Shown here piece by piece: positions 21,898 through 63,594 of a DNA stretch of 64,000 nt. Within the stretch, counting starts at the first letter, position 1; each line of letters begins with the position of its first letter. Below the pieces are notes generated by a model, which was given only the letters and a program-made list of their open reading frames with translations, was not told the origin of the DNA and ran no database searches. Made by a program: the position numbers and the translations under genes. The DNA lies in IMG/VR virus record IMGVR_UViG_3300043447_000408, positions 1 to 64,000 of that record; one strand, 5' to 3'. The DNA is from a virus. Lineage: Duplodnaviria; Heunggongvirae; Uroviricota; Caudoviricetes.

Positions 21898-22246
21898 AAA
21901 TGTTTAATCTTTTTTCGTTTTCAATTTTATCTTGATTGGTATATCTTTCTTTGTAAGATATAATTCTATGAAATTCTTTATATGCCGATGGGTGAGTTTC
22001 TTTTATCCTATCTAAACCATACTCATATTCAAAAAGTACGTCTTCATATCTTCTTTCTTTTTTATCAAAACCATCCTCTAGTTGTTCTAATTGTCCTTGT
22101 AAATTAATTACTTCATTTCGTAATGAATCTTCATTACAAATCGAATCAGATTTTATAGGTGTATTGTCCGGTTTATTCAGTGTAATAATTAGTAAAGTCA
22201 TTATTACAATTATTGCAATAGAAAGTCTGATTGCTACATTTTTCAT
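21881..22246 (-). CDS. membrane-anchored coiled-coil protein
   Basis: N-terminal TM, then heptad-like region. Confidence 0.4.
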   Translation of the reverse strand: MKNVAIRLSIAIIVIMTLLIITLNKPDNTPIKSDSICNEDSLRNEVINLQGQLEQLEDGFDKKERRYEDVLFEYEYGLDRIKETHPSAYKEFHRIISYKERYTNQDKIENEKRLNIYEHNR

Positions 22247-22905
22247 ATTAATTTATCTTTTAGTAATTCAAAAAATATATTGGTAAGAGTTTTATGTGCA
22301 TTCTCACCATAATGATTATCATTAACAATATTATTACTATCCATTTTTATTGTTTCAAGTTTCAATAACTTATGTACATTTAAATCAACATTATCATCAA
22401 ATGGTGTCCAATGAATTATTTTATTTTTCTTCATTGTATGATTAATAAAATGAATCCAATTATTAACTTCTCTATAATAAATTGGGTTATCTCTATTAAC
22501 AAAAATCTCCTCAATTGTGTTTCTTGACATATCGGTGTGATGAGTGATGTGATAATCCGTTACGGTGCCAGGTACAAATTTCACCCAATCACCATCTTTA
22601 GCAGCAAGTCTAAATCTAATCACACTCGACCAACCAATAATTACAATATCATTTTCTTTAATTCTATGTACGTTATTACACAAGGTTCCGAAAATAGAAT
22701 AATTATCATATCCCCCAACTCCTAAGTTCTCACTTTCAATCCCCAATTTTTCACCTAAAAAATCACAATAAACTTTTGGTAAATAACCTTTATAATCGAT
22801 GTAACTTTTACACCAATCGACGTTTGGGTTATATCTTTGTGTATAGCTATCACCAAAACACCACAACTTATTTTTTGTAGTATGCATTTTTTTGTATTTG
22901 TACAC
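22243..22905 (-). CDS. SGNH/GDSL hydrolase-like protein
   Basis: block I LWCFGDSYT, block V DNHYGENAH. Confidence 0.55.
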   Translation of the reverse strand: MYKYKKMHTTKNKLWCFGDSYTQRYNPNVDWCKSYIDYKGYLPKVYCDFLGEKLGIESENLGVGGYDNYSIFGTLCNNVHRIKENDIVIIGWSSVIRFRLAAKDGDWVKFVPGTVTDYHITHHTDMSRNTIEEIFVNRDNPIYYREVNNWIHFINHTMKKNKIIHWTPFDDNVDLNVHKLLKLETIKMDSNNIVNDNHYGENAHKTLTNIFFELLKDKLI

Positions 22906-23066
22906 CCATAAAAAATGTTAACCATCTAAACGATAAACCACACGCTGGCATCGATATACCGGTCTCAAAAAAAGTTTCTTTATTGTAAAAGAAAACAATT
23001 GTTGGTATCATAAACCAATGATGTTTCTTTTTATATATAAAAAAATCAGTTAGGTATTTTGGTTCT

Positions 23067-23907: not shown

Positions 23908-24267
23908 ATGTCAGTCTTAATTAACAACCAAACATTTCCTGCAGAGTATCTATCCCAACCAGACGAACTACAAAGAGGTATGATGGGTAGAGAGTCCCTA
24001 AACGGGTGTATGGTGTTTAAAATGGGTATGGGGACACATTCATTTTGGATGAAGAAGTGTCTAATACCACTTGATATTGTTTTTGTTAATAAAAACAGAA
24101 TAAGTAACATACATCGTGATTGTCAACCTTGTGAGGACGATTGTGATAAAAGATACAGGGGTATCGGTGACCACGTAATCGAATTCCCATCAGGAACCTG
24201 TTCCAATTTCAAAATTGGTGATAAAGTTAAAATGTATCTTGGGACTCCACAGAATCCTGTTCAATAA
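23908..24267 (+). CDS. DUF192-like protein on opposite strand
   Basis: CLIPLDIVFVNKN resembles the DUF192 PLD[IV][IVA]F core; own upstream AT-rich region. Confidence 0.45.
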   Translation: MSVLINNQTFPAEYLSQPDELQRGMMGRESLNGCMVFKMGMGTHSFWMKKCLIPLDIVFVNKNRISNIHRDCQPCEDDCDKRYRGIGDHVIEFPSGTCSNFKIGDKVKMYLGTPQNPVQ

Positions 24268-24928
24268 AACTATCAACCGCATTTATAAAATCGTACTTAA
24301 CTTTTGGTTTTACCTTTTCAAATACCCAAAAGTAACTATGATATTTTCTGGCGTGTTCTTGTTTAGTCCATTTAGTACCAAAACTATTGATTCTCACATT
24401 GGAAGTAAGTACAAACATATCTCTCGGGTAAAATCCAATCTGTAAAGCCATATTCATAATTAAACAATGGGTGAAGTGGTTCTTACCACCTGATACAGTG
24501 TCCTGACATTTCATTACCACATATCCACCTTTATCACAAATTCTATACAATTCCTTTAAAGTGTTGAAGTAATTGACTTTCAAGTCATTATATGTTGTGT
24601 AACCCTCAAATCTCTTCGCAATAATGGAGCTACCTTCCTTATTACCTTTATACGATGCTCCCGCAACCACGAATGGCGGGTCGTACATAATACTCTTCAT
24701 TGAGTTGTTCTCAAATGGTAGGTTCTCAGAGTCGGCCTCTACAACTGACTCATTTACAGGGAATAAATCACTTTTGTATGTTGGGCCTGGTAAGTCTTTC
24801 CAAAAATTACCTTTCGAATAGGTACAATCCAAATCGAATCTTTCGATTTTGTACAAATCCATAATGTTTCTAATCGCCTCAAAGTTAGATGTGTAAACAC
24901 TTTTGACCGGTTTAAAGTCTTTTTCCAT
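24227..24928 (-). CDS. DPP[FYW]-motif amino-methyltransferase-like protein (MT-A70 / N6-N4 MTase-like)
   Basis: SIMYDPPFVVAG followed by LKELYRICDKGGYVV; no clear FxGxG motif seen. Confidence 0.45.
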   Translation of the reverse strand: MEKDFKPVKSVYTSNFEAIRNIMDLYKIERFDLDCTYSKGNFWKDLPGPTYKSDLFPVNESVVEADSENLPFENNSMKSIMYDPPFVVAGASYKGNKEGSSIIAKRFEGYTTYNDLKVNYFNTLKELYRICDKGGYVVMKCQDTVSGGKNHFTHCLIMNMALQIGFYPRDMFVLTSNVRINSFGTKWTKQEHARKYHSYFWVFEKVKPKVKYDFINAVDSFIEQDSVESQDTF

Positions 24929-24929
24929 T

Positions 24930-25622
24930 TTAAATTAAGTTTTTAAGTTGTGGGTATATGAAATTATCGAATATTATTTTTTGTGATTCATTTCCAAAAT
25001 GTGAGTCCTTCGGTATTGGTGGTACATTATTGTTTTTTGTGAAGTCATCAACTGTACCATAAAGTATACGTATTTTTTTTATCAATTCCAAATAACCTGA
25101 TTTTTCAGCCAATTGATGGATGTCCTCGTACCAACTAAAGAATATCACTTTTTTACCATATGATTCACAAATGTGATGTACTAACAATATTGTATGTAGA
25201 ATCTTAATTTCGAGATTATATTTTGAAATTATGGATTGTTGATAGATAAAATCTAAAACTTTATTAGTATCGTACCATTTACTAAATTCAGTTTCAAACG
25301 CCTTTTCATTCCTCATTGTGGTGAAGTTAAAATACTTAACACCGTTCACGTTTGATGGTGAATGTAATCCCCTTTCATCGGATTTAATCATCGAAGCTCC
25401 CATCATAGTTCTAGCGGGGTGAGTTAATTGAAAAACGAATAAATCTAAGTCGGGATTGTTTTCAATAATGTATTTTACTTTCTCAATATTAACTTCATTT
25501 GACCCTCCTCTCGATGAGGAATCAATAATTTCCGCATTTAGAGTTTCACCCATATGAAACCACCAAGGTTCTCCTCCGTAATTTCTTGAACTATGTGAAC
25601 ACCCTGTCACACCTATTTTCAT
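24930..25622 (-). CDS. SGNH hydrolase-like protein (GCS variant)
   Basis: likely start at MKIGVTGCSHSS (internal Met of the 275-aa track ORF); block V KDSHFGNESQ. Confidence 0.5.
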   Translation of the reverse strand: MKIGVTGCSHSSRNYGGEPWWFHMGETLNAEIIDSSSRGGSNEVNIEKVKYIIENNPDLDLFVFQLTHPARTMMGASMIKSDERGLHSPSNVNGVKYFNFTTMRNEKAFETEFSKWYDTNKVLDFIYQQSIISKYNLEIKILHTILLVHHICESYGKKVIFFSWYEDIHQLAEKSGYLELIKKIRILYGTVDDFTKNNNVPPIPKDSHFGNESQKIIFDNFIYPQLKNLI

Positions 25623-38731: not shown

Positions 38732-39505
38732 TTATTTAGGTAAATAATCGGGAAAATTGGATTTTACAAACTGAAGTAGTTTTTTGGAGTATTCTTCGTT
38801 GTGTTTTGGTGTTGCGTGTTTACCATCAATTGAGAATTCACGGAAATCTCCGTAGTCACCATCGAACCGATATTTGTCAGAATATTCGTTATCCATCAGG
38901 AAAGAACCGTTCCATATATATGGGATGCTCCTATTCTCCAAATAATTGGTGATTAGAAGATGGTTTTTGTACCAATTGATTAAATCGTTCTCGTCGTGGG
39001 TAATCCTTGCAATTGATTTGTACTCCTCTTTCCCCTCACTATCTTCCTTAAAATAACCCCAAGGAGTCATATGAAATGGTTCCAACTCTCCGTTGTATCG
39101 ATAGTATTCTTTACGGGATGGGTAGGTGTACATTAAGTTAACCAAATTAGGTCTTATCTTTTGGGTTAAGGTGATTACACATCTAGCAATGTAATCATTA
39201 CTACGTCCACCAAACCCCAAATTTAAATCTACCCCGTTCTGTATCTGTCTTGAGAAATAGTGAGGCCAAGTTTGGTTATCACTAACCCCTACACCTTCGG
39301 TGTGGGAACAACCAACTGACATTATTCTAAACCCATCCTTATATAATGAATCTCCCCTGAACCCCATTTCATTGTATGTGTAGGTATTCGTTTCGGAAAT
39401 GTCGGAACCTGATGTGTTAAATGTTTTATTCCTACGTTCATCTAATCTCCAAGAATGGTTACCCACCTCAAACCCCGAACTTGTCCAAAACTTCATTGAT
39501 TTCAT
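38732..39505 (-). CDS. SGNH hydrolase-like protein (GCS variant)
   Basis: block I SVGCSHTEGVGV, block V DGKHATPKHNEE. Confidence 0.55.
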   Translation of the reverse strand: MKSMKFWTSSGFEVGNHSWRLDERRNKTFNTSGSDISETNTYTYNEMGFRGDSLYKDGFRIMSVGCSHTEGVGVSDNQTWPHYFSRQIQNGVDLNLGFGGRSNDYIARCVITLTQKIRPNLVNLMYTYPSRKEYYRYNGELEPFHMTPWGYFKEDSEGKEEYKSIARITHDENDLINWYKNHLLITNYLENRSIPYIWNGSFLMDNEYSDKYRFDGDYGDFREFSIDGKHATPKHNEEYSKKLLQFVKSNFPDYLPK

Positions 39506-40200
39506 ATTAAATTCTTGTTTCTAATGAAATGACTAACTTTATTTTTATCCGCAATGTGACAAACCCCATTCATTGATAACTCATCAAACGATGGGTTATG
39601 TTTATATAGGTAATTTATATCATCAAAGTATAAATTTAAATATTGTTGATTTAAAGTTATTGGTGGTATCCCGTGGTAACGTTTGTTAAAAAAATCGTAA
39701 TTTGACTCAATAACATCTAAAACTTCGGAATATGCTTTATTCACATTTCTAAAGTTGCGAGACGCAATTATTGAGGTGTTATTCAATTCCATATAATCTA
39801 ACGAGGTATTTGAATATAGTTTATGTAGTTCGGTAAAATGTTCAATTTGTGAACTCGATAAAGGATGTTTGTAACATAAATTTAGTTTATCCTTTTTAAT
39901 TATATCTAATAATTTTTTAATATCCTCAACTACTAAATCATTATCCAAATGTATAAAAGGAAACTGAATTTCGGATAGTACTTTTAATTTAGGATATGAC
40001 CATATTGTTGGTTTTCGGTATCTATCCGATAGGGACAATTCAACCCAATCATATACTAAGTCTAAATTTTTAAAATAATCAATATCGGAATATATTATAG
40101 GAACTTCACCCTGTATATTCAAACTTTGAATTGAGTACTTTAAGTAAATTTCAGTAATCTCTTTGAGTCTGGTTGGTAGATATGTGAATACTATTCTCAT
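39502..40200 (-). CDS. hypothetical protein
   Basis: 232-aa ORF, ends NLI. Confidence 0.5.
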   Translation of the reverse strand: MRIVFTYLPTRLKEITEIYLKYSIQSLNIQGEVPIIYSDIDYFKNLDLVYDWVELSLSDRYRKPTIWSYPKLKVLSEIQFPFIHLDNDLVVEDIKKLLDIIKKDKLNLCYKHPLSSSQIEHFTELHKLYSNTSLDYMELNNTSIIASRNFRNVNKAYSEVLDVIESNYDFFNKRYHGIPPITLNQQYLNLYFDDINYLYKHNPSFDELSMNGVCHIADKNKVSHFIRNKNLI

Positions 40201-41447: not shown

Positions 41448-41945
41448 TTAAATTAATTTCTTGATTGTTTTATCTCTATCACCTTTTCTTAATCTCTCCT
41501 CACTGTTGAAATCAAAAATATCTTCATAATACGTAATTGGGACATTAAGTTTGGTGGATAAGTCACTTAACTCCTTATTCCATTTTATAATGTCGTTGTG
41601 GCACAGTTCAAAAATATCTGTAGGTATCTCTTCATAAACATAAGGTTTGTTTGAGTCATAATTTTTAATCTTTGAGAAGTATGTTTGGTAAGCGTGTGAT
41701 TCTGTACACTCTTTAACGTTTCTTCTCGTTAATAATATCACCTCATCAAAGTTTTTTGATAGTTGTATATTATCGTTGTGATGACATATTATTGTTTTAA
41801 CCACAACATTCTTTTCACTATTATATTCAACTCTACCAGTACCATCAAACGGTTCAAACAAAGGTTTTAAATTTTTCTCTTTTGCTAATTTGTGTAACAA
41901 TGAAGTAGAACCTGTTCTTGGTAGGGAGATTATTAATACACTCAT
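41448..41945 (-). CDS. NodH/Stf0-like sulfotransferase
   Basis: 5'-PSB-like loop IISLPRTGSTSLL at N-terminus; LLTRRN..ES 3'-PB-like; short (165 aa). Confidence 0.5.
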   Translation of the reverse strand: MSVLIISLPRTGSTSLLHKLAKEKNLKPLFEPFDGTGRVEYNSEKNVVVKTIICHHNDNIQLSKNFDEVILLTRRNVKECTESHAYQTYFSKIKNYDSNKPYVYEEIPTDIFELCHNDIIKWNKELSDLSTKLNVPITYYEDIFDFNSEERLRKGDRDKTIKKLI

Positions 41946-42508
41946 AACAATGTTTTATTACTTTTAACTCTCGGATAATCAAAATCAGTTTCGGTCATCC
42001 ACACATTTAACGCATATCTTATTCCCTTAGTTACCGGTAAAACTCCGTGATATGTTTCCGAACCATTGAATGAAATACTATCACCCAATTTCAAATCACA
42101 TAATGTTAAACCGTCCAATTTCTCAAAGTTGTATGGTGGATTCTCATCTTGGGTTAACACAAATTGACCACCTTCAAAATCGTCAGAAAGAACGATAACA
42201 GTCGTCAACTCACTTGACTTGTCTTTATGTAGATTAAGGTACCTACCATCATAGTACGATGTTAAACTTATATTGAAATTTTTTAAATTAAATGTTGAAT
42301 AATCAAACCATAATTTAAACTCTCCATTTTTGTAATTGGTTGTTAATAAATTAATAATTCTTTCTTTAAAATTGGAATCGTACATTCTTCTACAATCCCA
42401 TACTTCGGTTGGTTTATATGAAAAGGGTTCACCGAACTCAAGACAAAAATCAATTATATCTTTAGCGGTTTCTCTATCACAAAAATTATTGTTTATGTTA
42501 TAATTCAT
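41942..42508 (-). CDS. 2OG-Fe(II) oxygenase (prolyl-4-hydroxylase-like)
   Basis: HKD (HxD), distal YHGV His, RYALNVW Arg. Confidence 0.7.
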   Translation of the reverse strand: MNYNINNNFCDRETAKDIIDFCLEFGEPFSYKPTEVWDCRRMYDSNFKERIINLLTTNYKNGEFKLWFDYSTFNLKNFNISLTSYYDGRYLNLHKDKSSELTTVIVLSDDFEGGQFVLTQDENPPYNFEKLDGLTLCDLKLGDSISFNGSETYHGVLPVTKGIRYALNVWMTETDFDYPRVKSNKTLL

Positions 42509-43326
42509 AGTAGATATGAATTTTTCTTTTTATTATGAATTAGTAAATTACCTTCATTTATGAATTTATACAATTCCTCAGCAATTAATTTATATCCATT
42601 GTTACTTGGATGTTTACCTGCGGTTGTGTCCACCCATCGATTATTATCCTCCCAAACATCTTTTCTATTTGTGTCGATTAACAAATTAGCCATTGTTTTA
42701 TCTCTATAACCCCAATATCTTTCACCCTCAATCAAATGAGTTTTATCAACCAGAACATCAATATTTTTGTTAATCATAGTATCAAACGCATCACAAAAAA
42801 CATATCTAATCCCCAACTCTTTAAACATAAATTGTAAGTGTAGAATGTAGTTTTGGTTAACTATGTCATAGTACGTGTCATTAAACAAATTACTAATGTA
42901 GTAATCTCTAAAATTTTTTTCTGCTCTATTATAGTTTACATTATCCCCACTAACACCGTCGAAAATATATTTGAAAAGATGTTGTTTACTCTTATATCGT
43001 TGACCCCAAATATGAAAACTATTCTCGTTCGGAAAAAATGGTAATTGGTCTCTTAATGAGGAGGACCACATAATAACAACAAAATCATCTTGAGTGATGA
43101 TTTCATTTTTTAATTGATAACAAACTGTATTGAATATTGAGTTGTTTGAAAAAGCCCCAACTCCGTTATTTTTAACTTCACATTCAAGTAGTTCTGATAA
43201 GTGTTTTGGCCAACAATATTTTTGTCTTATGTTAGTTCTTTCCTCAGGAATTTCTGTTGTTAATTCTTCCTCAACATTACCCCCAACACCTTCTGTCCAA
43301 CTATCTCCATATGTGAATAACTTCAT
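42505..43326 (-). CDS. SGNH/GDSL hydrolase
   Basis: block I LFTYGDSWTEGVGG, block V AGKHPSNNGYKLIAE. Confidence 0.6.
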   Translation of the reverse strand: MKLFTYGDSWTEGVGGNVEEELTTEIPEERTNIRQKYCWPKHLSELLECEVKNNGVGAFSNNSIFNTVCYQLKNEIITQDDFVVIMWSSSLRDQLPFFPNENSFHIWGQRYKSKQHLFKYIFDGVSGDNVNYNRAEKNFRDYYISNLFNDTYYDIVNQNYILHLQFMFKELGIRYVFCDAFDTMINKNIDVLVDKTHLIEGERYWGYRDKTMANLLIDTNRKDVWEDNNRWVDTTAGKHPSNNGYKLIAEELYKFINEGNLLIHNKKKNSYLL

Positions 43327-44987: not shown

Positions 44988-45078
44988 AAATTTTGTTTCC
45001 TTACAATAAATATATCTATAAAAATATTATTAGAAAAGGATATTTATAATGTTTATTTTTTTATTATATATGTATATA

Positions 45079-47377: not shown

Positions 47378-47378
47378 A

Positions 47379-51760: not shown

Positions 51761-51877
51761 TTAGTGTTTATAAATGAATGGGTCTCTTTTTTTAAGTTCG
51801 GCTAATTTCTTTTTAAATTCTTTTTTCTTTTTCCATTCTACCCATTTGTGGGTTAACCATCCAATAAATGCTTTCAT
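51761..51877 (-). CDS. small basic protein (38 aa), not in ORF track
   Basis: ATG overlaps the TGA of the upstream carbamoyltransferase gene (ATGA); MKAFIGWLTHKWVEWKKKKEF... Confidence 0.3.
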   Translation of the reverse strand: MKAFIGWLTHKWVEWKKKKEFKKKLAELKKRDPFIYKH

Positions 51878-53511
51878 TTGTTTCCGTTTTTATAGATAAT
51901 ATAATCACCAATCACCAATATGTCCATAGCAGTGTCCAAATATGTTAGTATAGCATCTTCTGGTGTTAAAACCATTGTTTTATCTTTAACATTAAAAGAT
52001 GTATTCAATAATATTGGGTAATCAGTTCTCTCTTCAAATTCTTTTAATAGATGATAAATTGGGTTATTTGGTGTGACAGATTGAACTCTAGCACTACCAT
52101 CAACGTGTGTAACCGCAGGTAACTTATCTCTATATTTTTTTAACACATTAACCACTTGATTCATATATGGAATATATTCTTTTGAATCAAAGAACTCACT
52201 TTGACGTTCAAAAATTACCATAGGGGCAAATGGTCTAAACCCTTCTCTTTTTTTAATAACTTTATTAATCCTTTCTTGCATATCGGGTACTGTTGGATTT
52301 GCCAATATTGACCTATTACCCAACGCCCTTGCACCAAATTCTATTTTATCTTGGAACCACCCAACAACTAACCCCATACTTAAATATTGTGCAGTTCTTT
52401 TATATAATCTTTCTTTTGTATGTTTTCTATAAAATATTTTATGTCCGTATTTGTTTAATGTATTTTGAATTTCATTATGACTATAAGAAGGACCTAAAAA
52501 TGGTGTTGGTGAAATTCTCACATTAAGTCCTTTAACTTTTGATAGGTAGTCTAAACAAGAACCAATACAAGAACCTGCGTCAGAAGGTGCCGGTGGAACC
52601 CATACCTTTTTAAAAATTCCGTTTTTAATTATTTTACCATTAGCACATCCATTATATGCACAACCACCCCCAATACAAATGTTATCTGAATAATAAAACA
52701 ATTTCGCATCTTTTATTAATTGAAAAAACAACTCTTCATATCTTTCCTGTACTGATGCTGCTAAGTCTTTGTGGTCATCGGTAAGAGGTGTATTTGGTAA
52801 TCTGTTTTCAATACCTAACAAATCAGCTAATTTGTAATTAAACATTGTGTCATCGGATTTATTCCATATGAAACAATCCATATTACAGGATAATTTATAT
52901 CCATCAAAATTAATTAACTGAGCAACTTTACTTCTAAATCTTTCGGGGTCACCATATGCGGCCAAACCCATTACTTTATACTCACCTTCGTTTGGTTTAA
53001 AACCCAGAAAAGCAGTCATTGCAGAATAATATAACCCTAATGAATCAGGGTATTCGATTGTCTTAATATTATGAACCACTCCATTAATACCTTTACCAAA
53101 TGAAACCGTTGAAGTTTCACCAACACCGTCAACAGATACTATAACCGCCTTATCAAAATTCGATGATAAATACGAATAAGCCATATGTGACATATGGTGT
53201 GAGGTATAGTGTATCTTATCAGATATCTTTCTTAAATTCCACCAAACTTTAATGTTGGTTTTTAGTGAGGTAAAAAAAGATTTCTTTCTTTTGAATCTGA
53301 GTCTTGGGTTTTCATAATAACAAACCGCTTCAATGTCCGATTTTTTTAAATTGAAGTGGTCAAAAATGTATTCTATGGTCTTTTCAGGAAATGAACTATC
53401 GTGTTTGATTCCAGTGAACTTTTCTTCCTCACAAGCAAAGACTAATTCCCCATCTTTAAAAAGACAAGCAGAAGAATCGTGATAATATGCGGATACTCCA
53501 ATAATATACAT
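51874..53511 (-). CDS. carbamoyltransferase (NodU/CmcH family)
   Basis: 545 aa; N-terminal IIGVSAYYHDSSACL signature. Confidence 0.8.
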   Translation of the reverse strand: MYIIGVSAYYHDSSACLFKDGELVFACEEEKFTGIKHDSSFPEKTIEYIFDHFNLKKSDIEAVCYYENPRLRFKRKKSFFTSLKTNIKVWWNLRKISDKIHYTSHHMSHMAYSYLSSNFDKAVIVSVDGVGETSTVSFGKGINGVVHNIKTIEYPDSLGLYYSAMTAFLGFKPNEGEYKVMGLAAYGDPERFRSKVAQLINFDGYKLSCNMDCFIWNKSDDTMFNYKLADLLGIENRLPNTPLTDDHKDLAASVQERYEELFFQLIKDAKLFYYSDNICIGGGCAYNGCANGKIIKNGIFKKVWVPPAPSDAGSCIGSCLDYLSKVKGLNVRISPTPFLGPSYSHNEIQNTLNKYGHKIFYRKHTKERLYKRTAQYLSMGLVVGWFQDKIEFGARALGNRSILANPTVPDMQERINKVIKKREGFRPFAPMVIFERQSEFFDSKEYIPYMNQVVNVLKKYRDKLPAVTHVDGSARVQSVTPNNPIYHLLKEFEERTDYPILLNTSFNVKDKTMVLTPEDAILTYLDTAMDILVIGDYIIYKNGNK

Positions 53512-53520: not shown

Positions 53521-54546
53521 TTATTTAGTTTTCATTATTAGACCGTTAAGTCTGTTGGTTAATGATAATAAGTACTTATAGTACATTAAACTAATCTCAT
53601 CAGACTTTGTCTGTTTAGGAAACATATTATCAATAATTGCAATGTAGTTTAGACCATTAAAATCTTCAATGATGCGTTCTTTTATTAAGAAAATAATCTC
53701 TTCAAAATTTTTATATCCATTCAAATGTAAAAATCCATTAAAGTCGAACATCACTCTTTTAAATAAATTGTGATAATCATCAACCATAGTTAAATCTTCA
53801 CCAGACCTTATTCCAAAAGGAAAATCCCAATCTTTACCTTTACTAAACTCAATATATGTTGGATTATATTCAAATAGGAATTTGAAGTTTTCTAAATTGT
53901 GGTCACCCTTTATCATTCTCATCGCTGCAGGAATGAATAGTTGTTCAATGATACAAGCGTTATAATAATTTGAATCGAAAAAGTCAGTATGGTTTTGGTA
54001 TAGTTCTAAACAATATTTTGAAGATTCTTTAATCAATTCAAAGTTATGTCCACCAAATACTGACATATTCGGAACATTATTGAACTTAACGTATTTTAAA
54101 AACTCTTCGGGTAACTTACTTTGGATTTCAAAACTTCTTTTTACGTATGTTGTATAAAAAGAAGTATTTGTTCTTTCAAAGTTAAGTATGTCTCCACTAC
54201 CTTCCGCAAAGGTGGAGTATATGTTTTCAAAATCATTGAAGAATATCTTTTTAAAAATAAAAGTATCTAAATCAATGTGAATGTAAGGTTCAGTTTGTTG
54301 TGAATAAACAACTAATTTAGGTACTGAAAAGGTTTTAACATTCACGTCTTTTAAAACGTCAGTGTTGATTTCATCATAGGGTAAACCTATCTTTTTAACG
54401 ATATCACCCACCTCTTGATTTGTATACAACACAACATACCCATAATGTCTTTTAGCTAACAATAGAGATAATGACATTAAATAAAATATATTTTTATTTA
54501 ATGGACCGCTATTTCCTGTTTGTATGTATGTGTGTACTATTTTCAT
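53521..54546 (-). CDS. putative DXD glycosyltransferase
   Basis: YIHIDLDTFIF. Confidence 0.4.
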   Translation of the reverse strand: MKIVHTYIQTGNSGPLNKNIFYLMSLSLLLAKRHYGYVVLYTNQEVGDIVKKIGLPYDEINTDVLKDVNVKTFSVPKLVVYSQQTEPYIHIDLDTFIFKKIFFNDFENIYSTFAEGSGDILNFERTNTSFYTTYVKRSFEIQSKLPEEFLKYVKFNNVPNMSVFGGHNFELIKESSKYCLELYQNHTDFFDSNYYNACIIEQLFIPAAMRMIKGDHNLENFKFLFEYNPTYIEFSKGKDWDFPFGIRSGEDLTMVDDYHNLFKRVMFDFNGFLHLNGYKNFEEIIFLIKERIIEDFNGLNYIAIIDNMFPKQTKSDEISLMYYKYLLSLTNRLNGLIMKTK

Positions 54547-55283
54547 ATACTTTTAAAGTCAGAGAAATCTCCACTTTTTTCAACTAATTGTTTGAAGTTA
54601 ATATATGTATTTTTTTTGTCTTTTTCAACCAATGACTCCCATTTTTCCGCAATCATATCCATACTTTCAGTATAATACTCAGGTAACCTTGTCTTTACCC
54701 AATCCAAATGGGTTGTTATTGTTGGATGTGAATCAAATTCATCAATAAAGTTATATTGTGGTTTGCCTTCATTAAAATCCATTAAATTATCTGCGGTTAA
54801 TATTTTTTGTAGTTCGTTACTACAATTAACCATTCTTTTTGGTATGTTTTCTAATGTCCCCTTTTGTGATGATATGTCAAATGCTGACATAAACTTATAC
54901 TCACAACCAATACTATCTAATAAGTACTTTACACTCAATATGTTGTACCAACTCATAAAATATCCGTGTTCATCGGTCCAATATTTGGTGACAAAATCGT
55001 GACCATATAAAGTTTGATTGTAAAGATTGCCAGCGTTTATCCAATTGGAATTTTTATCAATCATATCATTTCTGAAATATTGACTAAACATCACCAATAC
55101 TGTATCATCCTTAGTAAACTTATTTACTGAATTACATTCAAATAGTCTCGATGATATAAAATAGTTACCAGCACCAGCATTAGCCCAATTTTGATGGGTG
55201 TCAAAATTTAGTGCAACAAAATCTGCCCAAGTGGGCCAAATATAACTCGTAAAACTACAACCAAATGTAAAAAGTCTACCCAT
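54543..55283 (-). CDS. SGNH hydrolase-like protein (GCS variant)
   Basis: block I LFTFGCSFTSY, block V DSHPTITTH. Confidence 0.55.
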   Translation of the reverse strand: MGRLFTFGCSFTSYIWPTWADFVALNFDTHQNWANAGAGNYFISSRLFECNSVNKFTKDDTVLVMFSQYFRNDMIDKNSNWINAGNLYNQTLYGHDFVTKYWTDEHGYFMSWYNILSVKYLLDSIGCEYKFMSAFDISSQKGTLENIPKRMVNCSNELQKILTADNLMDFNEGKPQYNFIDEFDSHPTITTHLDWVKTRLPEYYTESMDMIAEKWESLVEKDKKNTYINFKQLVEKSGDFSDFKSI

Positions 55284-56547: not shown

Positions 56548-56628
56548 AGTTTAAATATAAAAAATTTTTTCTTAAATTTAAAGTGGTTGACTATTGATAA
56601 AAAATTATTTAAATTAGTGTTTACAGAT
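56548..56628. promoter_or_regulatory. divergent intergenic region at strand switch
   Basis: AT-rich 81-nt gap between minus and plus gene blocks. Confidence 0.25.
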
Positions 56629-57597: not shown

Positions 57598-57598
57598 T

Positions 57599-58144: not shown

Positions 58145-58773
58145 TAAAAAATTTAGATGACCATCTACCAATTGTTAGGGAGATGTTATGGGATAAAGAA
58201 GGACTTATACAATTTGAGAGAAAAATGGCCGACCATTGGGAAGCTGGTAGAGTTCGTGGACCGATTCACTTAAGTGGTGGAAATGAAGATGAACTAATTG
58301 AAATTTTCAAAAGAGTTAAAACAACAGATTGGGTATTCTCAACTTGGAGGTCTCATTATCACGCATTGTTAAAAGGTGTACCTTCTGAATGGTTAGAAGA
58401 GGAGATATTAGCTGGTAGGTCAATTACAATTGTGAATAAAGACGAGAAGTTTTATTCATCCGCAATTGTTGGTGGTACAATTCCAATTGCTGTTGGTGTT
58501 GCTATGGCTTTGAAACAACAAGGTAGTAAAGATAAGGTGTGGTGTTTCGTTGGTGATATGTCTTTCGAGACTGGTGGTTTTATGGAAAACTACAAATACG
58601 CCAAGAACTTTGACCTCCCAATTCAATTTGTAGTTGAGGATAATGGTGTATCAACAAACACTCCAACAATTGAAACTTGGAAAGTAAAAACTGAAGCACC
58701 TGAGGGTGTAATTTGGTATAATTATATTAAACAATGGCCGCACTACGGAACAGGTAAATGGGTAATTTTTTAA
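58141..58773 (+). CDS. TPP-binding subunit of split transketolase/E1-like enzyme
   Basis: thiamine-diphosphate motif GDMSFETGG...FVVEDNG. Confidence 0.7.
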   Translation: MIKNLDDHLPIVREMLWDKEGLIQFERKMADHWEAGRVRGPIHLSGGNEDELIEIFKRVKTTDWVFSTWRSHYHALLKGVPSEWLEEEILAGRSITIVNKDEKFYSSAIVGGTIPIAVGVAMALKQQGSKDKVWCFVGDMSFETGGFMENYKYAKNFDLPIQFVVEDNGVSTNTPTIETWKVKTEAPEGVIWYNYIKQWPHYGTGKWVIF

Positions 58774-60041
58774 ATTTAGTATATGACGATTGGCACCACA
58801 ATGCAACTCATCCAAATATTAATGGTGAGAAGGAATTTGGTGCGAATAATTTCAGAAGATTCGATGGTTTGATGAATTTTTATGAATTTAATAATTTCAA
58901 AAGATTTAGGATAACGGAGGTTAAGAATCATCCTAATGAAAATTTCTATTATGTTATTGGCCATATTCACGAGATTGGTCACGCATTAAAAGCTCATAAC
59001 ATATTACCATTACCAACCAAGGTAATTAAACATTTAAAAGAAAATCCAAACCTCTATGTTATTTTTCTAAATGAACACGAGGTGGAAACTGAAGAAACCG
59101 TTATTGGAATTGAAAAATGGGTAATTGATAAGGGAATCGACCCAAAACAAATATATGTTATCAACAACAATTACAATTTAAAGAAGTATAAAGAGGATAA
59201 CAATTTAAGTTTGAATGTCCATACAATTAAGTTCTTACCAATTAAAGTTGCTAAGGAGTTAGATATGTACGATACTGATTTCATAACTGATAAACAATCT
59301 GAATTTTTTGTTTCACATAACAGGACACCAAAAGTTCATAGATACGCTCTTTTAGTTTTACTTAAAAAGAACAAATTGTTACAGGAAGTTGATTGGTCTT
59401 TGGTGATGGGGTGGAATCATAAAATGGATATGAAACACACAACAATAAACACCTTCTATCACGAATTATTCACAGAAAAGGAAATTCAAAAAATGAAATC
59501 TGAGATTGATTTTTTTGAGGATATTGATATCAAGAAAAGTAAGTACGAAGACAATATTGATTGGTTTGATAGGGATTGGGATAGTCACGTAAGGAGTCTT
59601 CCGTTTCACATTGAATGGAATCGAGTTTATGAGAAGCAAACATATGAGAACTCATACGTTAACATAACTACGGAATCTTGTTTTAAAAGAGATAATGTTG
59701 TCCATTTAAGTGAGAAAACATTCAAACCTCTTTTCTTTAATCAATATCCGCTTTATGTTGCAAGTATGGACCACGTAAAGACTGTAAAAGATGTTTATGG
59801 GTTTGATGTGTTCGAAGATATATTAGACCATTCATATGATTCTGAATCTGACCAAAGAAAACGATTATTCAAATTGTTTGATGAGATAAAGAGAATATAT
59901 AAAAATAAAAACAAGTTCATTTCAAATTACATTAACCTAAAAGATAGGTTTGAAAATAATAAAAAGTTAGTACTGGAATTATTAAATAACAAAGATGATG
60001 TGGAGTTTTTCACATCACTAATCGAAAATAAGAAAAAATAA
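58758..60041 (+). CDS. putative fucosyltransferase-like glycosyltransferase, paralog of 55276-56547
   Basis: FVSHNRTPKVHR, LSEKTFKPLFFNQYPLYVAS, LDHSYDSESDQRKR. Confidence 0.45.
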   Translation: MGNFLNLVYDDWHHNATHPNINGEKEFGANNFRRFDGLMNFYEFNNFKRFRITEVKNHPNENFYYVIGHIHEIGHALKAHNILPLPTKVIKHLKENPNLYVIFLNEHEVETEETVIGIEKWVIDKGIDPKQIYVINNNYNLKKYKEDNNLSLNVHTIKFLPIKVAKELDMYDTDFITDKQSEFFVSHNRTPKVHRYALLVLLKKNKLLQEVDWSLVMGWNHKMDMKHTTINTFYHELFTEKEIQKMKSEIDFFEDIDIKKSKYEDNIDWFDRDWDSHVRSLPFHIEWNRVYEKQTYENSYVNITTESCFKRDNVVHLSEKTFKPLFFNQYPLYVASMDHVKTVKDVYGFDVFEDILDHSYDSESDQRKRLFKLFDEIKRIYKNKNKFISNYINLKDRFENNKKLVLELLNNKDDVEFFTSLIENKKK

Positions 60042-61814
60042 ATGAAAAAAATTTTAATTACAGGTTGTTCAGGTTTAGTCGGTGTTCATTTGGTTAAGGA
60101 ATCGATTATGAGAAACCATTTAGTCATTGGTGTTGACAAAGTTAAATCGGAGCATTTACCAGAATCTGATAGGTTTAAGTTTTATGAATTAGACCTTATG
60201 AATGAGGAGAACATTACAAAATTATTTGAAGAAGAAAAACCAGACGCAGTATTCAACTGCTTCGGTGTTAAGGGTTCACCATTAAAAGCTAAAACTCAAC
60301 CGGTGGACTTTCTATATCCATCACAAAAAATCAATACTGAAATAATTCACCAATGTGCCAAAAATAACGTTTGGTTAGTTTTTGTAAGTTCTGTTGGTGT
60401 TTACTCTCCTGCTGAGAAATTCTTAGAAACTGATGTATGGAAGACATTACCTTCTGAAAATGATTGGTTTCCTGCTTGGTCAAAAAGAATTGGTGAGTTA
60501 TTGGTAGGTGCATATAGAAAACAATATGGTTATAAAAAATGGACTATTGTTAGACCCGCAAACATATTTGGTGAGTATGATGATTGGAGTGGTAATGGTA
60601 CTGTAATCTCAAGTATTATTAAGAAAGTATATGAAGCCGAGGATGGTGGTGAAATTGAAGCTTGGGGAGATGGTACACCTGTTAGAGATTTTATTTATGC
60701 TAATGACGTTGCAGTTGCTATTTTAAATTGTTATAAGAATAGAGTGAATGACGTAGTTAATTTAGGTTCTGGTGAAACGATAACAATTCAATCAATGATT
60801 GAAGAGGTTATTAAAATTAGTGGTAAAAATTTAACCATTAAATGGGATAAATCAAAACCAAATGGAGATATGCGTAGACAAATGGATACCAGTCTTCAAA
60901 ACGGTTATCAACTATTACCTTTTGTAGGATTTAAGGAAGCACTTAGAAGAACGTATAGTTATTATGAAAAACACTATGGTACACTTGAATTGAATATGGA
61001 CATTGAAGAGTATCTTGAAAAGGGATTTTATGTTGGTAAAGTTAAAGAATTTATTAAAAAACACGAATGGGATGATTATCTAAAAAGATTAGAAAATATT
61101 AGAAAAAAATCTGAAGATAAGAAAGGTTATGGATATCGTTTTGAATTTAGAATACCAACAGACTATTCTGAAGAAGGATTTGATTATGTTAGAACAATAC
61201 CCGCAGATGAGATAGAAGAAAGAGAAAAATTCGTTACCGAAAAAGGTTGGGATGTTGTTCAGCGTTGGTGGGAGTTGAGGGATAGTGAAGGAAATTTCAA
61301 TGACGATATATTCTACTTTAGAGATAAGGTATCAAGATTTGTTCATAAGATATATCCTGAAGTAAAAGAATGGAATATTGGGCACAACGATGGGTTAACA
61401 ATTTATGAAAATGGTGACTTTATTGAACCTCATATTGATGGTCAAAATCCTGATAGATATTGTGTGGTATTAATTTACTTATCAGACGAAAAAGACTATA
61501 TTGATGGTGGAGGAAAATTAATATTACAAGATAAGGGATATTATGATGAAGTAATTCCAATCCATTTAAATTTTGCAATGTTAGATTTCTCAAAAAATAA
61601 TTCAAATCACACAGTTGAAATGGTTAAGAATGATTTTAAAAGATTTACATACATTAATTTCATTCAAGTTAGACCTTATAGTCCTCCCGCAAGATACAAT
61701 GGTAATGAAAAAATTGAAGAGGTGTGGGAACCTGATACTGATGTATGTTATGGTAAACCATTTGAGATTCCACAAACTAATGATGTAAAAAAAGTTAAAA
61801 AAAGTTTAATATGA
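60042..61814 (+). CDS. fusion protein: NAD-dependent epimerase/reductase + 2OG-Fe(II) oxygenase
   Basis: N-terminal MKKILITGCSGLVGVHLV Rossmann; C-terminal EPHIDG, NHTVEMV, RFTYINF; ends KKSLI like other oxygenase paralogs. Confidence 0.7.
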   Translation: MKKILITGCSGLVGVHLVKESIMRNHLVIGVDKVKSEHLPESDRFKFYELDLMNEENITKLFEEEKPDAVFNCFGVKGSPLKAKTQPVDFLYPSQKINTEIIHQCAKNNVWLVFVSSVGVYSPAEKFLETDVWKTLPSENDWFPAWSKRIGELLVGAYRKQYGYKKWTIVRPANIFGEYDDWSGNGTVISSIIKKVYEAEDGGEIEAWGDGTPVRDFIYANDVAVAILNCYKNRVNDVVNLGSGETITIQSMIEEVIKISGKNLTIKWDKSKPNGDMRRQMDTSLQNGYQLLPFVGFKEALRRTYSYYEKHYGTLELNMDIEEYLEKGFYVGKVKEFIKKHEWDDYLKRLENIRKKSEDKKGYGYRFEFRIPTDYSEEGFDYVRTIPADEIEEREKFVTEKGWDVVQRWWELRDSEGNFNDDIFYFRDKVSRFVHKIYPEVKEWNIGHNDGLTIYENGDFIEPHIDGQNPDRYCVVLIYLSDEKDYIDGGGKLILQDKGYYDEVIPIHLNFAMLDFSKNNSNHTVEMVKNDFKRFTYINFIQVRPYSPPARYNGNEKIEEVWEPDTDVCYGKPFEIPQTNDVKKVKKSLI

Positions 61815-62785
61815 TAAATAAAAATTCAAAAATTTTAATAACCGGTGGTTCTGGTTTGGTTGGGCAAAACTTAACAAATAGGTTAGTGTCCGAAGGATAC
61901 AACAACATAAGAGTTTCTTTACACGCTAGAGAACCAAGAATAAAACATATGGATGTAGAATATTGGTATTCTGATTTACAAACACAAGAAGGTTGTAAAA
62001 CTATTACCAAAGATGTTGATGTTGTTTTTCATTGTGCAGCATCTACTTCAAATGCTGTTGATACTGTCAATGACCCATTAGCTCACGTAACTCCAAATGT
62101 TGCAATGAACAATTTTTTAATTGATGCCGCTTGGAGAAATAACGTTAAACATTATGTATTTATTTCATCGAACACTGTGTATCCACCTAAAGGTGATGAA
62201 CCTGTGGTTGAAACTGATTTCTTATTTGATGAACCTTATCCTGTTTATTTCCCTGTTGGTTGGATGAAACGTTACGCTGAGGTTCAATGTGAATTGTATG
62301 CAAAATACTTACCACGAACAATGAAATGTACTGTCATCAGACCTGCTAATTTGTTTGGCCCTCACGATAAGTACGATTTCAATAAGTGTCACGTAACACC
62401 CGCAACTATTCGTAAAGTTGCTGACCAATTAAATCCAATTCCTGTTTGGGGTGATGGTACTGAGTTAAGAGACTTACTATATGTTGAAGATTTTGTTGAA
62501 TCTTTACAAGTTGTAATGGAAAATGAAACTGAAATGTTCCAAGTATATAACGTTGGTTCAAATAAAGTTTATTCAGTACTTGAAGTATTGGATGAAATGA
62601 AGAAAATTGCAAACTACGATGCACCTACTGAGTTCATTAGTGGTAAACCTTCAATGATTCCAACAAGAAAAATCGATTCAAATAAAATAAAAGATAAATT
62701 AGGTTGGGAAGCTAAAACTTCATTATCTGAAGGTTTAGAGAAAGCCTACGAATGGTATAACGAAAACAAAAACGAATTTAATTAA
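61811..62785 (+). CDS. NAD-dependent epimerase/reductase (GDP-sugar synthase-like)
   Basis: ILITGGSGLVGQNL, VFHCAAS. Confidence 0.75.
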   Translation: MINKNSKILITGGSGLVGQNLTNRLVSEGYNNIRVSLHAREPRIKHMDVEYWYSDLQTQEGCKTITKDVDVVFHCAASTSNAVDTVNDPLAHVTPNVAMNNFLIDAAWRNNVKHYVFISSNTVYPPKGDEPVVETDFLFDEPYPVYFPVGWMKRYAEVQCELYAKYLPRTMKCTVIRPANLFGPHDKYDFNKCHVTPATIRKVADQLNPIPVWGDGTELRDLLYVEDFVESLQVVMENETEMFQVYNVGSNKVYSVLEVLDEMKKIANYDAPTEFISGKPSMIPTRKIDSNKIKDKLGWEAKTSLSEGLEKAYEWYNENKNEFN

Positions 62786-63594
62786 TGAAAAAGGGAATAG
62801 TATTTGCTGGTTGTTCTTTTACTTGGGGTCAAGGTCTTTATTATTATTCAAAAATGAGTACAGTTAAAGAACCCGCACCCGAACAATTCGAACAAAAATT
62901 AGTAACAGATGCACATAAACGTTTTATGTCTACTTTAAGATTTCCAAGATTAGTCGCAAATCATTTTGAAACATTTGAAATTGTTAAAAAAGAAAATGGT
63001 GGTAGTGAGGACGAGTCGTTATTGTTTTTAGATTACATTTTTACCAATAGAAACGGATTAACTCACTTACTTGAGGAAAAATTTTCATATGAAGAAATAG
63101 GGTATGCCGTTTTCCAAACCAGTCAACCAGGTAGATGTTCATTTACATTTACACATAAGGGAAATGACCACAAAATGAATTGGATTGGTTCGTCTCAAGG
63201 AATCCAAAGAATCTTCTTTGAATGGATGGAAGAAAATGGTATTGGTGGATTTCCTGAATGGTATGTTGAACACTGTAAACAACAAGTTAAAAAAATTAAA
63301 GAGACGTTTGAATTTTTGGAGAGTAAGGGTATTAAGTGTATAATTGTTAATTGGCAAGATGACTATGTTAAGTATGTTAAGGAAGACCCTTATTTACACG
63401 ACAGAATGGTCTATCTAAATTATAACGGTACTGAATATACCAATATCGATTATATGATGAGACTTAATAATGGTTTAACCATTAGAGATGATTTTGATGA
63501 ATTAGGAGAACATCCACCGAAAGATTCTCACCCATCTAAAAAATGTCATAGAATAATTGCAGACGCAGTAATCAAAAAAATAGAATCATTATGA
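62785..63594 (+). CDS. SGNH hydrolase-like protein (GCS variant)
   Basis: block I IVFAGCSFTWGQG, block V KDSHPSKKCHRIIADAV. Confidence 0.55.
   Translation: MKKGIVFAGCSFTWGQGLYYYSKMSTVKEPAPEQFEQKLVTDAHKRFMSTLRFPRLVANHFETFEIVKKENGGSEDESLLFLDYIFTNRNGLTHLLEEKFSYEEIGYAVFQTSQPGRCSFTFTHKGNDHKMNWIGSSQGIQRIFFEWMEENGIGGFPEWYVEHCKQQVKKIKETFEFLESKGIKCIIVNWQDDYVKYVKEDPYLHDRMVYLNYNGTEYTNIDYMMRLNNGLTIRDDFDELGEHPPKDSHPSKKCHRIIADAVIKKIESL

Follow-up and report, generated by a model that had tools for sequence, protein, structure and literature searches.

We analyzed a 64,000-nt stretch of DNA (the window) from a large uncultured tailed phage, whose 22-64 kb region is an island for sugar and glycan biosynthesis and tailoring. 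PHROG profiles matched a tail fibre, an RnlA-like protein and an endolysin in the window, and these matches, together with overlapping operon-style gene junctions, led us to reject the giant-virus origin that low GC, a GVMAG-named contig and long contigs had brought into consideration. The mimivirus-type AAAATTGA motif was not enriched (10 occurrences observed vs 17 expected). Glycosyltransferases, SDR enzymes, 2OG oxygenases and a carbamoyltransferase populate the island; a Trp-halogenase-like gene is found there too, and 2OG oxygenase domains number at least six. No PKS, NRPS or ACP genes were seen in it, nor was an obvious acyl donor system (AT3, MBOAT, ACP or acyl-CoA ligase). Large aquatic phages with core glycosyltransferases ('moraphages') have been described (PMC12619734).

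The island encodes six small SGNH-like proteins, hereafter A to F. Their ORFs lie where the initial annotation had placed them, with a refined start for A, and the translations bear out its reading of block I as GCS in four (B, C, E and F) and GDS in two (A and D), the strings being FGDSYT (A), TGCSHS (B), VGCSHT (C), YGDSWT (D), FGCSFT (E) and AGCSFT (F). A, a 214-aa protein of the GDS type, is encoded at 22243..22887 on the minus strand in an ORF that opens at GTG 22905 and likely starts at ATG 22887. It carries G12-D13-S14 (Ser codon 22846-22848), G59 and N62, D80, S87-x3-R91 and, as block V, D190-N-H192 (His codon 22312-22314), all conserved in 22 relatives that are 26-93% identical. The 230-aa GCS-type protein B (24930..25622, minus strand) has its sensible start at ATG 25622, as annotated initially, and not at the listed TTG 25757; its residues are C8-S9 (Ser codon 25596-25598), G39/N42/E43, Q65-x-T67-x-P69-x-R71 and D206-S-H208 in block V (His codon 24999-25001). 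C (257 aa, GCS type; 38732..39505, minus strand) bears an N-terminal extension of ~60 aa with a Y-x-(Y/F)-N-x-x-G-(F/Y)-R motif, followed by C66-S67 (Ser codon 39305-39307), N95-x-G-x-G100-x-S-N103-D, T127-x3-R131-x-E133 and the block V residues D227-G-K-H230 (His codon 38816-38818). The GDS-type protein D (273 aa; 42505..43326, minus strand) displays D8-S9 (Ser codon 43300-43302), N53-x-G55, N61-N62, D81 and S88-S-S-L-R92-D93, and its block V reads A-G-K-H239-P240 (His codon 42610-42612) with no conserved Asp near the His. The last two, both of the GCS type, are E (246 aa; 54543..55283, minus strand), with C9-S10 (Ser codon 55254-55256), G37-x-G39-N40, D60, S67-x3-R71-x-D73 and D184-S-H186-P187 in block V (His codon 54726-54728), and F (269 aa; 62785..63594, plus strand), in which C10-S11 (Ser codon 62815-62817) is embedded in an invariant GCSFTWGQGLY and followed by N71-G-G73, Q111-T-S113-x3-R117, D247-S-H249-P-S as block V (His codon 63529-63531) and an invariant C254-H255. 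Neither a signal peptide nor a transmembrane segment was found in any of the six (maximum 19-residue hydropathy ≤1.07), which are thus predicted to be soluble, cytoplasmic proteins.

Alignment of each protein with its relatives revealed a common set of conserved positions. The nucleophile Ser is kept in 120/120 E, 121/121 F, 27/27 B and 135/139 C sequences and in at least 95% of the A and D families, while the His and an Arg are essentially invariant in every family. The block II Gly, in an N-x-G-x-(G)-G context, is likewise conserved; it is invariant in A (G59), B (G39), D (G55), E (G39) and F (G73), and G100 is the majority residue in the C family (108 of 132 aligned). On the other hand, no family has a conserved Asn at block III (canonically G-x-N-D), where an [S/T]-x-x-x-R motif is invariant instead (R91 in A, R71 in B, R131 in C, R92 in D, R71 in E and R117 in F). 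Loss of this Asn from all six had been overlooked initially. Block V also departs from what had been proposed: a C-terminal D-x-x-H(P) was said to be retained by all, but this is true of C only and wrong for the other five, since A, B, E and F have D-x-H, and D has a conserved His lacking a neighbouring Asp. As read from the alignments, the six proteins therefore appear to share a derived layout made of Cys or Asp before the Ser, [S/T]-x-x-x-R in place of the block III Asn and, usually, D-x-H. The block III Asn is also lost in the accepted members SASA and AlgX (PMC9487903) and in DltD and 4I8I (PMC10792757), and both D-x-H and Ser-His dyads occur in accepted SGNH members (PMC9487903).

We then assessed how the six proteins are related. 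Pairwise BLAST and phmmer comparisons detected only the A-D (1e-10) and A-E (~3e-5) pairs, identity among the six being below ~35%. However, an HMM of the C family ranked exactly A to F as the top six among the 209 six-frame ORFs of the window, with E-values of 1e-79, 5e-11 (D), 1.3e-7 (A), 1.8e-5, 1.4e-4 and 2.2e-4; the next ORF scored 0.36, and no seventh member was found among these ORFs. The E-family HMM also matched A, at 2.8e-8. Profile-profile alignment (hhalign) to the C family yielded probabilities of 92.9% for B (E-value 3.6e-7, full length), 93.2% for F and 97.0% for E, whereas comparisons bypassing this family were weak (E-F 12%, E-B 0.6% and F-B 67%). At the profile level, the relationship of the six thus appears clear only with the broad C family as the hub. 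The initial description of a six-member paralog family holds inasmuch as the C-family HMM picks exactly these six, but not in the sense of a recent expansion in this genome: the four families searched directly are old and count 27 (B), 351 (E) and 644 (F) database clusters and >1,250 cluster representatives (C) elsewhere, and identity between any two of the six stays below ~35%. D has 75 related viral loci. Each protein is the local member of a separate, old family.

Public models recognize these proteins poorly. None of the six reached the Pfam gathering thresholds of Lipase_GDSL and Lipase_GDSL_2 (23.6 and 32.9 bits): A scored 17.2 and 18.3 bits, respectively (E-values 0.004-0.006, N-terminal part only), C 13.2 and D 15.4 bits, and B, E and F had no match to either. 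D matched Pfam DUF6071 (PF19547) at 26.4 bits (E-value 6.4e-6), just below the cut-off of 27. This model was also matched by 2 of 46 C-family members (best 3e-9), but not by A, B, C, E and F themselves. PHROGs and NCBIfam returned nothing above threshold for any of the six, and neither Pfam nor NCBIfam has a model for the E, F and B families. A link to solved structures came from the C profile, which matched the GDSL esterases 9otv (2.5e-6), 3hp4 (7e-5), TesA and TAP in the PDB, aligning GCS with GDS, Ser with Ser and D-x-x-H with D-x-x-H. Its likeness to TesA is limited to blocks I-II and V, and the E, F and B profiles produced only noise against PDB sequences, with no SGNH structure matched. 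Structure prediction, which the initial annotation had put forward as a check, was performed for E and F, and both high-confidence models adopt the SGNH fold (alpha/beta/alpha, with a five-stranded parallel sheet). In these models GCS directly follows strand 1, the His lies just before the C-terminal helix, and a beta-hairpin comes directly after [S/T]xxxR. The E model matched 38 BFVD models at E-values <1e-3, nearly all from uncultured phages, some of which had already been auto-named as containing an SGNH_hydrolase domain. Insignificance of most pairwise comparisons and the lack of any above-threshold Pfam match would be expected as well if the six were a chance collection of short motifs (an N-terminal G-x-S and a C-terminal H) in unrelated AT-rich ORFs. 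This reading, exceedingly improbable in our judgement, is refuted by the selection of exactly six ORFs by the C-family HMM, with a gap of more than three orders of magnitude to the next one, by the profile-profile probabilities of 93-97% and by the two high-confidence models with the SGNH fold. Collectively, these data identify the six proteins as members of the SGNH hydrolase fold superfamily, very distant from the SGNH/GDSL esterases.

The residue preceding the nucleophile deserves separate consideration. Cys occupies this position in 120/120 E, 120/121 F and 27/27 B sequences, the remaining F-family member carrying Asp, while the C family has 123 Cys, 15 Asp and 1 Ser. The nearest neighbours of several GDS members of the C family (among them P0268, P0345, P0374 and P0396) are GCS proteins, which indicates that Cys and Asp have been swapped several times within this family. 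The claim of a conserved, non-canonical Asp-to-Cys change therefore stands as to its near-invariance in B, E and F and its absence from surveyed structures, but the change is not fixed. In a survey of ~30 representative SGNH structures, the nucleophile is preceded by Asp, Asn, Gln or Thr, as well as by Ser in Table 2 (DltD, GSSEL), but not by Cys; the same survey describes this preceding residue as forming an Asx or ST motif that shapes the nucleophile turn (PMC10792757). Our literature search found no mention of GCS or GCSL motifs in SGNH enzymes. A catalytic Cys, acting as nucleophile, as thioester relay partner of the Ser or as redox switch in a chemistry unlike that of SGNH hydrolases, would account for the near-invariance in three families and for the lack of Cys in the surveyed representatives; the thiol would stay reduced in cytoplasmic proteins, and C254-H255 is a second Cys-His pair that is invariant in the F family. 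We nevertheless consider such a role very unlikely: 15 of 139 C-family sequences have Asp instead, with several switches between close relatives while the Ser is kept in 135, A and D combine GDS with the same remaining motif set, and the C profile places GCS on the GDS of solved esterases and its Ser on their nucleophile. Given the repeated swaps in the C family, the Cys most likely stands in for Asp as a structural cap and is not a nucleophile. It would cap the nucleophile turn, possibly pairing with the invariant Arg. The variant is thus conserved but apparently interchangeable with Asp, and does not amount to new chemistry.

Comparison with characterized systems revealed partial likenesses. 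TAP/TesA-like and GDSL-1/2 esterases (1IVN, 4JGG, 3HP4 and 9OTV) have Asp before the Ser, G-x-N-D in block III and D-x-x-H in block V, as opposed to Cys in four of the six proteins, [S/T]-x-x-x-R with a predicted beta-hairpin, and D-x-H in four of the six. CE2 acetyl-xylan esterases (2WAA, 2WAO, 4XVH and 3U37), which use a Ser-His dyad (PMC9487903), are secreted enzymes that retain the block III Asn and bear a jelly-roll carbohydrate-binding domain at the N-terminus; F, 13-16% identical to them, has none of these traits. SASA/CE6 (GQSN and HQGE), 4I8I (BACUNI_01406-like; GNSFS and QQASPL) and DltD (GSSEL and IISPQW) likewise have no Asn in block III and carry a residue other than Asp ahead of the Ser, and the block III of the latter two (x-S-P-x) resembles Q-x-T/S-x-P-x-R of B and F and Y-T-Y-P-S-R of C. 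However, this likeness is one of motif strings, and these enzymes have neither Cys before the Ser nor an invariant Arg four residues after S/T; conversely, the SASA/CE6 motifs G-Q-S-N (block I) and (H)QGE (block III) occur in none of the six. AlgX/AlgJ (GTS, Tyr and D-x-H), like SASA, have been described without the block III Asn (PMC9487903), and they share with the six both this loss and the D-x-H, but are periplasmic and circularly permuted (H-S-G-N). The six are cytoplasmic by prediction and follow the S-G-(R)-H order, all having an N-terminal Ser and a C-terminal His, so a permutation of this type is not found among them. Finally, the guanidinium of Arg359 serves the oxyanion hole in PatB1, of the DHHW family (PMC9487903), where this Arg sits in block II rather than at block III.

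Each of the six genes overlaps or abuts a neighbour at a stop/start junction. Of the seven such junctions, four are ATGA overlaps (A, D and E with the gene downstream, C with the gene upstream), one is TAATG (on the upstream side of F), one an 8-nt overlap (on the upstream side of E) and one a 1-nt spacer (behind B). The partners are a gene for a 121-aa unknown protein (A); a methyltransferase-like, namely N6_N4_Mtase-like, gene directly downstream of B (233 aa; 24227..24928, minus strand); a DUF6734-like gene whose stop overlaps the start of C (232 aa; 39502..40200, minus strand) and whose product has an invariant D-x-D after a hydrophobic strand; a 2OG-Fe(II) oxygenase gene whose start overlaps the D stop (188 aa; 41942..42508, minus strand); and a DUF6734 gene (341 aa, E-value 3.4e-20; 53521..54546, minus strand) that overlaps the E stop with its start. 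The E operon also includes a carbamoyltransferase gene (545 aa; 51874..53511, minus strand). Upstream of F, the segment 60042..62785 (plus strand) encodes an SDR epimerase/dehydratase-2OG-Fe(II) oxygenase fusion (590 aa) and then a second SDR (324 aa), the stop of which overlaps the F start. These genes and F belong to an operon (56587-63594) in which they follow genes for an SDR, a 3,5-epimerase, a TPP E1-like protein and an unknown. Tight coupling, as proposed initially, is thus evident, but no gene with a glycosyltransferase match in Pfam is an immediate neighbour of any of the six. A gene of the thymidylate-synthase family and a DNA-methylase-like gene adjoin A and B. The arrangement of modules around B, E and F is kept in distant phages: one phage, with an E homologue of only 36% identity, has an E-family gene abutting a carbamoyltransferase gene, SDR, 2OG oxygenase, SDR and F-like genes stand in this order again at 46% identity, and the B-like and methyltransferase-like pair recurs at 45% B identity beside a GT1-GT1-GT2-SDR-GT2 block. 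DUF6734-like genes, too, adjoin an SGNH-like gene in 19 of 23 cases. Single-sequence and profile searches of DUF6734 against the PDB gave no result as to its fold, and a literature search found no mention of DUF6071 or DUF6734, the former having no described function.

Outside this phage, the D, E and F families look largely virus-restricted. A motif-seeded scan of 185,579 bacterial and archaeal species genomes found no F and only five MAG loci of E, three of which come from a single MAG, on two large contigs that are probably viral. In deposited phages the families escaped detection, as tblastn of C, D, E and F against 50,697 genomes gave no match (E-values up to 1e-3, or 1e-2 for D), nor did megablast of 24 kb against GenBank phages.

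Fold, conserved Ser and His, and gene context make cytoplasmic O-acyl tailoring of phage-made sugars the most likely role of these proteins. The Ser would form an acyl-enzyme with the His as base, and O-acyl groups would be added to or removed from nucleotide-activated sugars or the glycan assembled by the neighbouring enzymes. Alternatively, the proteins might act on non-glycan substrates, that is, acyl-CoA or lysophospholipids for a TesA/TAP-like thioesterase or lipase, small-molecule intermediates, or glycosylated or hypermodified phage DNA: the closest solved relatives of the C family by sequence are lysophospholipase L1/TesA/TAP-like, the halogenase-like gene and the 2OG oxygenase domains are typical of secondary metabolism, and A and B sit beside the thymidylate-synthase-family and DNA-methylase-like genes. 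This option seems rather unlikely, however, given that the genes that recur nearby code for nucleotide-sugar enzymes, glycosyltransferases and a sugar-type carbamoyltransferase, PKS, NRPS and ACP genes were not seen, and the likeness to TesA is confined to blocks I-II and V. A virion-associated role would in turn fit the location of an E homologue among the tail genes of one phage. Still, that the six are host-directed, possibly virion-associated esterases that de-O-acetylate host polysaccharide or peptidoglycan at adsorption or lysis, like phage tail-fibre SGNH domains, is clearly unlikely, because they are small stand-alone proteins without signal peptide, tail-fibre adaptor, trimerisation domain or carbohydrate-binding module, are coupled in translation to SDRs, 2OG oxygenases and a carbamoyltransferase, which are cytoplasmic biosynthetic enzymes, and match tail fibres well below free esterases. 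Within the preferred reading, O-acyl tailoring, transfer instead of hydrolysis would be a real possibility, since loss of the block III Asn, D-x-H and an oxyanion-hole Arg are known from SGNH-type O-acetyltransferases. The SGNH domain of CASD1 reportedly transfers acetyl from acetyl-CoA to CMP-sialic acid via a covalent acetyl-enzyme. More speculatively, and in our view with a low probability, the GCS/[S/T]xxxR/D-x-H proteins might form a clade of cytoplasmic sugar O-acyltransferases, apparently virus-restricted as far as D, E and F were searched, in which an Arg-based oxyanion hole anchored by Cys or Asp would favour acyl-CoA transfer to (nucleotide-)sugars, and large aquatic phages would swap cassettes beside DUF6734, a putative DxD glycosyltransferase, thereby varying the decoration of phage-made glycans.

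The explanation as a whole, i.e., separate old SGNH-fold families with a derived active site that perform O-acyl tailoring in a sugar island, is in our assessment moderately probable. It reveals no new fold or new chemistry, but shows that Cys, too, is tolerated ahead of the SGNH nucleophile, and the natural Cys/Asp pairs provide ready-made material for mutational tests. Apart from the weak DUF6071 matches of C and D, no curated model covers the C, D, E and F families, and recognizing them as SGNH-fold enzymes that share an altered active site is a first handle on a recurrent but unannotated component of the sugar islands in large aquatic phages.

All six SGNH-like ORFs of the initial annotation, namely A (22243-22887, −), B (24930-25622, −), C (38732-39505, −), D (42505-43326, −), E (54543-55283, −) and F (62785-63594, +), are present in the window, and their block I motifs read as described, GDS in A and D and GCS in B, C, E and F; the probable start of A is the ATG at 22887, not the GTG at 22905. 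Raw pairwise similarity among the six was detectable for A-D and A-E only, so their proposed kinship needed testing. Homologues were collected from a clustered database (351 hits for E, 644 for F, 27 for B and, in an exhaustive search, 1,256 representatives at E up to 1e-3 for C), and an HMM of 46 diverse C-family sequences was searched against the 209 six-frame ORFs of the window. Its top six were exactly the six candidates (E-values 1e-79, 5e-11, 1.3e-7, 1.8e-5, 1.4e-4 and 2.2e-4; next ORF 0.36), with no seventh SGNH-like member detected in this ORF set. The E-family HMM also found A (2.8e-8) and D (1.7e-7). Profile-profile comparisons with the C family as hub linked E (probability 97.0%, E-value 8e-11), F (93.2%, 2.9e-7) and B (92.9%, 3.6e-7) to C, the B-C and F-C alignments running full length with every motif block in register and the E-C alignment covering blocks I-III. 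HMM retrieval and profile-profile scores thus make the six-member family real at the superfamily level. Nonetheless, the notion of a paralogue expansion was overstated: the six share less than ~35% mutual identity, and each constitutes its own orthologous family spread across many contigs. As judged from these sequence comparisons, they are anciently diverged lineages and not a recent expansion within this genome.

The SGNH fold assignment holds. AlphaFold2 models built from the family alignments were confident for both E (pLDDT 93.9, pTM 0.91) and F (pLDDT 94.4, pTM 0.91); in both, strand 1 runs directly into G-C-S and the conserved His lies just ahead of the C-terminal helix, both being positions canonical for SGNH proteins. 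Further, the C-family profile matches by sequence solved TesA/TAP/lysophospholipase-L1-like esterases (9otv, 2.5e-6; 3hp4, 7e-5), aligning GCS on GDS and D-g-l-H-p-G on D-G-I-H-P. The E, F and B profiles retrieved no structure by sequence alone, and B is placed among the SGNH proteins, putatively, by hhalign and its motifs only.

The family alignments have in common three departures from the textbook S-G-N-H anatomy. The first is the residue before the nucleophile, which is Cys in 120/120 E, 120/121 F and 27/27 B sequences, and Asp in the A and D families. The C family is mixed (123 Cys, 15 Asp, 1 Ser), with GCS proteins repeatedly being the nearest relatives of GDS proteins; indeed, the representative closest to the window's C (P0268) carries GDS, while its nearest neighbour, at 67% identity, carries GCS. 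This residue fixes the geometry of the nucleophile turn, Asp, Asn or Gln forming an Asx motif and Thr an ST motif, and a table of ~30 representative SGNH structures lists GDS, GQS, GNS and GSS, with Thr given for AlgX/AlgJ in the text; Cys is absent from both the table and the text of that survey (PMC10792757). The conserved, non-canonical Cys before Ser noted in the initial annotation is therefore a real variant that had not been listed before, although the annotation had made too much of the change: the exchange of Cys and Asp within the C family, the stronger conservation of Ser than of Cys, and the surveyed pre-Ser residues indicate that Cys most likely fills a structural role in place of Asp and is not a catalytic novelty. 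Secondly, the block III Asn is missing from all six, and an invariant [S/T]-x-x-x-R occupies its place after the strand that usually bears G-x-N-D (Arg at A R91, B R71, C R131, D R92, E R71 and F R117), followed by a beta-hairpin in both models. Thirdly, the D-x-x-H(P) block V ascribed to all six occurs in C only; A, B, E and F have D-x-H, and D a lone His-Pro. Accepted SGNH members provide precedents for such features: SASA, DltD and 4I8I also lack the block III Asn, AlgX/AlgJ have D-x-H, PatB1 has an Arg in the oxyanion hole, and CE2 enzymes use a Ser-His dyad (PMC9487903; PMC10792757). Beyond its GCS Cys, the F family also has an invariant C254-H255 pair five residues past the block V His and an invariant H44, which might form a metal site or contact C10.

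The six genes all have overlapping or abutting junctions, with DUF6734-like genes (C and E), a 2OG oxygenase (D), an SDR (F), a methyltransferase-like gene (B) and a small gene without assigned family (A). None of these partners is a Pfam-recognised glycosyltransferase. Some arrangements persist in distant relatives: an E-like gene adjoining a carbamoyltransferase at 36% identity, the order SDR, 2OG oxygenase, SDR, F-like at 46%, and a B-like plus methyltransferase-like gene next to a GT1-GT1-GT2-SDR-GT2 block at 45%. F closes an operon (56587-63594, +) encoding an SDR (336 aa), a dTDP-4-dehydrorhamnose 3,5-epimerase (181 aa), a TPP-dependent E1-like protein (210 aa), a 427-aa protein, an SDR-2OG-Fe(II) oxygenase fusion (590 aa) and an SDR (324 aa). 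Its last four domains recur in the same order in a related locus (L086), and the operon has the look of a pathway to an unusual deoxysugar, possibly C-branched. Between D and a 497-aa ORF lies a 47-aa ORF (43338-43481, −), which is probably a real small gene, since one of equal length is called there in all six D-carrying metagenome contigs.

The DUF6734-like proteins (39502-40200, 1.7e-4; 50189-51133, 1.2e-4; 53521-54546, 3.4e-20; Pfam E-values, all −) share with their viral relatives an invariant D-x-D (HLDNDL / HIDLDT) behind a hydrophobic strand, a pattern suggestive of a GT-A-type glycosyltransferase. Sequence searches matched them to no solved structure, and a literature search for DUF6734 returned no mention of the family. 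A DUF6734-like ORF abuts an SGNH-like one in 19 of 23 cases. Phages with a D orthologue of 80-91% identity encode, after the DUF6734-like gene, a ~219-aa GDS-type SGNH-like protein in place of the C type; this seventh type (GDSMTFG ... TLHGR ... NDTHFS), syntenic with 38732-39505, occurs at loci L014, L020-L025, L036, L040, L048 and L053. The slot thus appears to exchange SGNH cassettes.

These SGNH-like families are plentiful in metagenomes. However, tblastn of C, D, E and F detected no homologues in 50,697 GenBank phage records, and motif-seeded scanning of 185,579 prokaryotic species genomes uncovered no F-family genes and five E-family loci only. Three of the latter (L102, L104 and L105) lie on two large contigs, PBPT01000016.1 (335 kb) and PBPT01000082.1 (153 kb), of one MAG binned as 'Candidatus Neomarinimicrobiota bacterium RS350'; because the E family is otherwise almost confined to viral contigs, both are probably viral and may have been mis-binned. 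Querying BFVD with the E model in Foldseek gave 38 hits, nearly all 'uncultured Caudovirales phage', a few already auto-named SGNH_hydrolase domain proteins. Related phages commonly carry several SGNH-like copies per locus, such as four C/D-type genes inside 20 kb, or three F-family paralogues (292, 294 and 295 aa; L086 425-1303, 2017-2901 and 8001-8888) within 8 kb of a 233-kb viral contig. The L086 paralogues adjoin radical-SAM-like genes and two GT7-type (Glyco_transf_7N/7C) glycosyltransferases.

The source of the window (GC ~32%; dense, co-directional ORFs) is a large tailed phage known from metagenomes alone, with near-identical as well as related contigs (96-316 kb) among IMG/VR viral contigs, several freshwater or estuarine, and no DNA-level match in GenBank phages. 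The first 22 kb of the window hold genes for an RnlA-like RNA ligase, a phosphoesterase, a C5 DNA methyltransferase, and M23/endolysin-like, NlpC/P60 and thymidylate-synthase-family proteins. The last of these (20803-21897, −) has 364 aa against 266 positions in the Pfam model, hence an insertion of ~100 residues, and L099 likewise encodes a 364-aa form. A 218-aa GTG ORF (15709-16365, −) is most likely spurious, as the C5 DNA methyltransferase gene (15434-16387) encloses it completely in another reading frame. The sugar and tailoring island spans 22-64 kb, with two GT1/GT4 and three GT2 glycosyltransferases, four stand-alone SDR epimerase/dehydratases besides the one fused to a 2OG oxygenase, the 3,5-epimerase and E1-like protein, three DUF6734-like proteins, one carbamoyltransferase (51874-53511) and at least six 2OG-Fe(II) oxygenase domains. 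Of the oxygenase domains, those at 41942, 46154, 46724 and 48620 belong to the stretch 41942-49168 (−), another makes up the C-terminal half of the 60042-61814 (+) product, and the others are weaker; a Trp-halogenase-family protein (47379-48623, −; E 1e-88) lies between them. Mid-island, immediately downstream of C, a 1276-aa protein (34847-38677, −) with a C-terminal Peptidase_S74 intramolecular chaperone matches many tail-fibre PHROGs.

Overall, the core observation is confirmed apart from the block V description. Its interpretation finds partial support: the family and the fold stand, while the function of the six is putative. In contrast to most bacterial SGNH esterases and periplasmic O-acetyltransferases, the six all lack signal peptides and membrane segments. 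No dedicated acyl-donor gene was seen in the island. The proteins would act as cytoplasmic Ser-His(-Asp) catalysts forming an acyl-enzyme. Acyl transfer by them is plausible by analogy, because their derived features recur in SGNH-type acetyltransferases, and further so given that the CASD1 SGNH domain reportedly moves acetyl from acetyl-CoA onto CMP-sialic acid via a covalent acetyl-enzyme. The six may add O-acyl groups to, or remove them from, nucleotide sugars or the island-built glycan, with virion proteins, the host envelope or DNA as candidate targets of the island.
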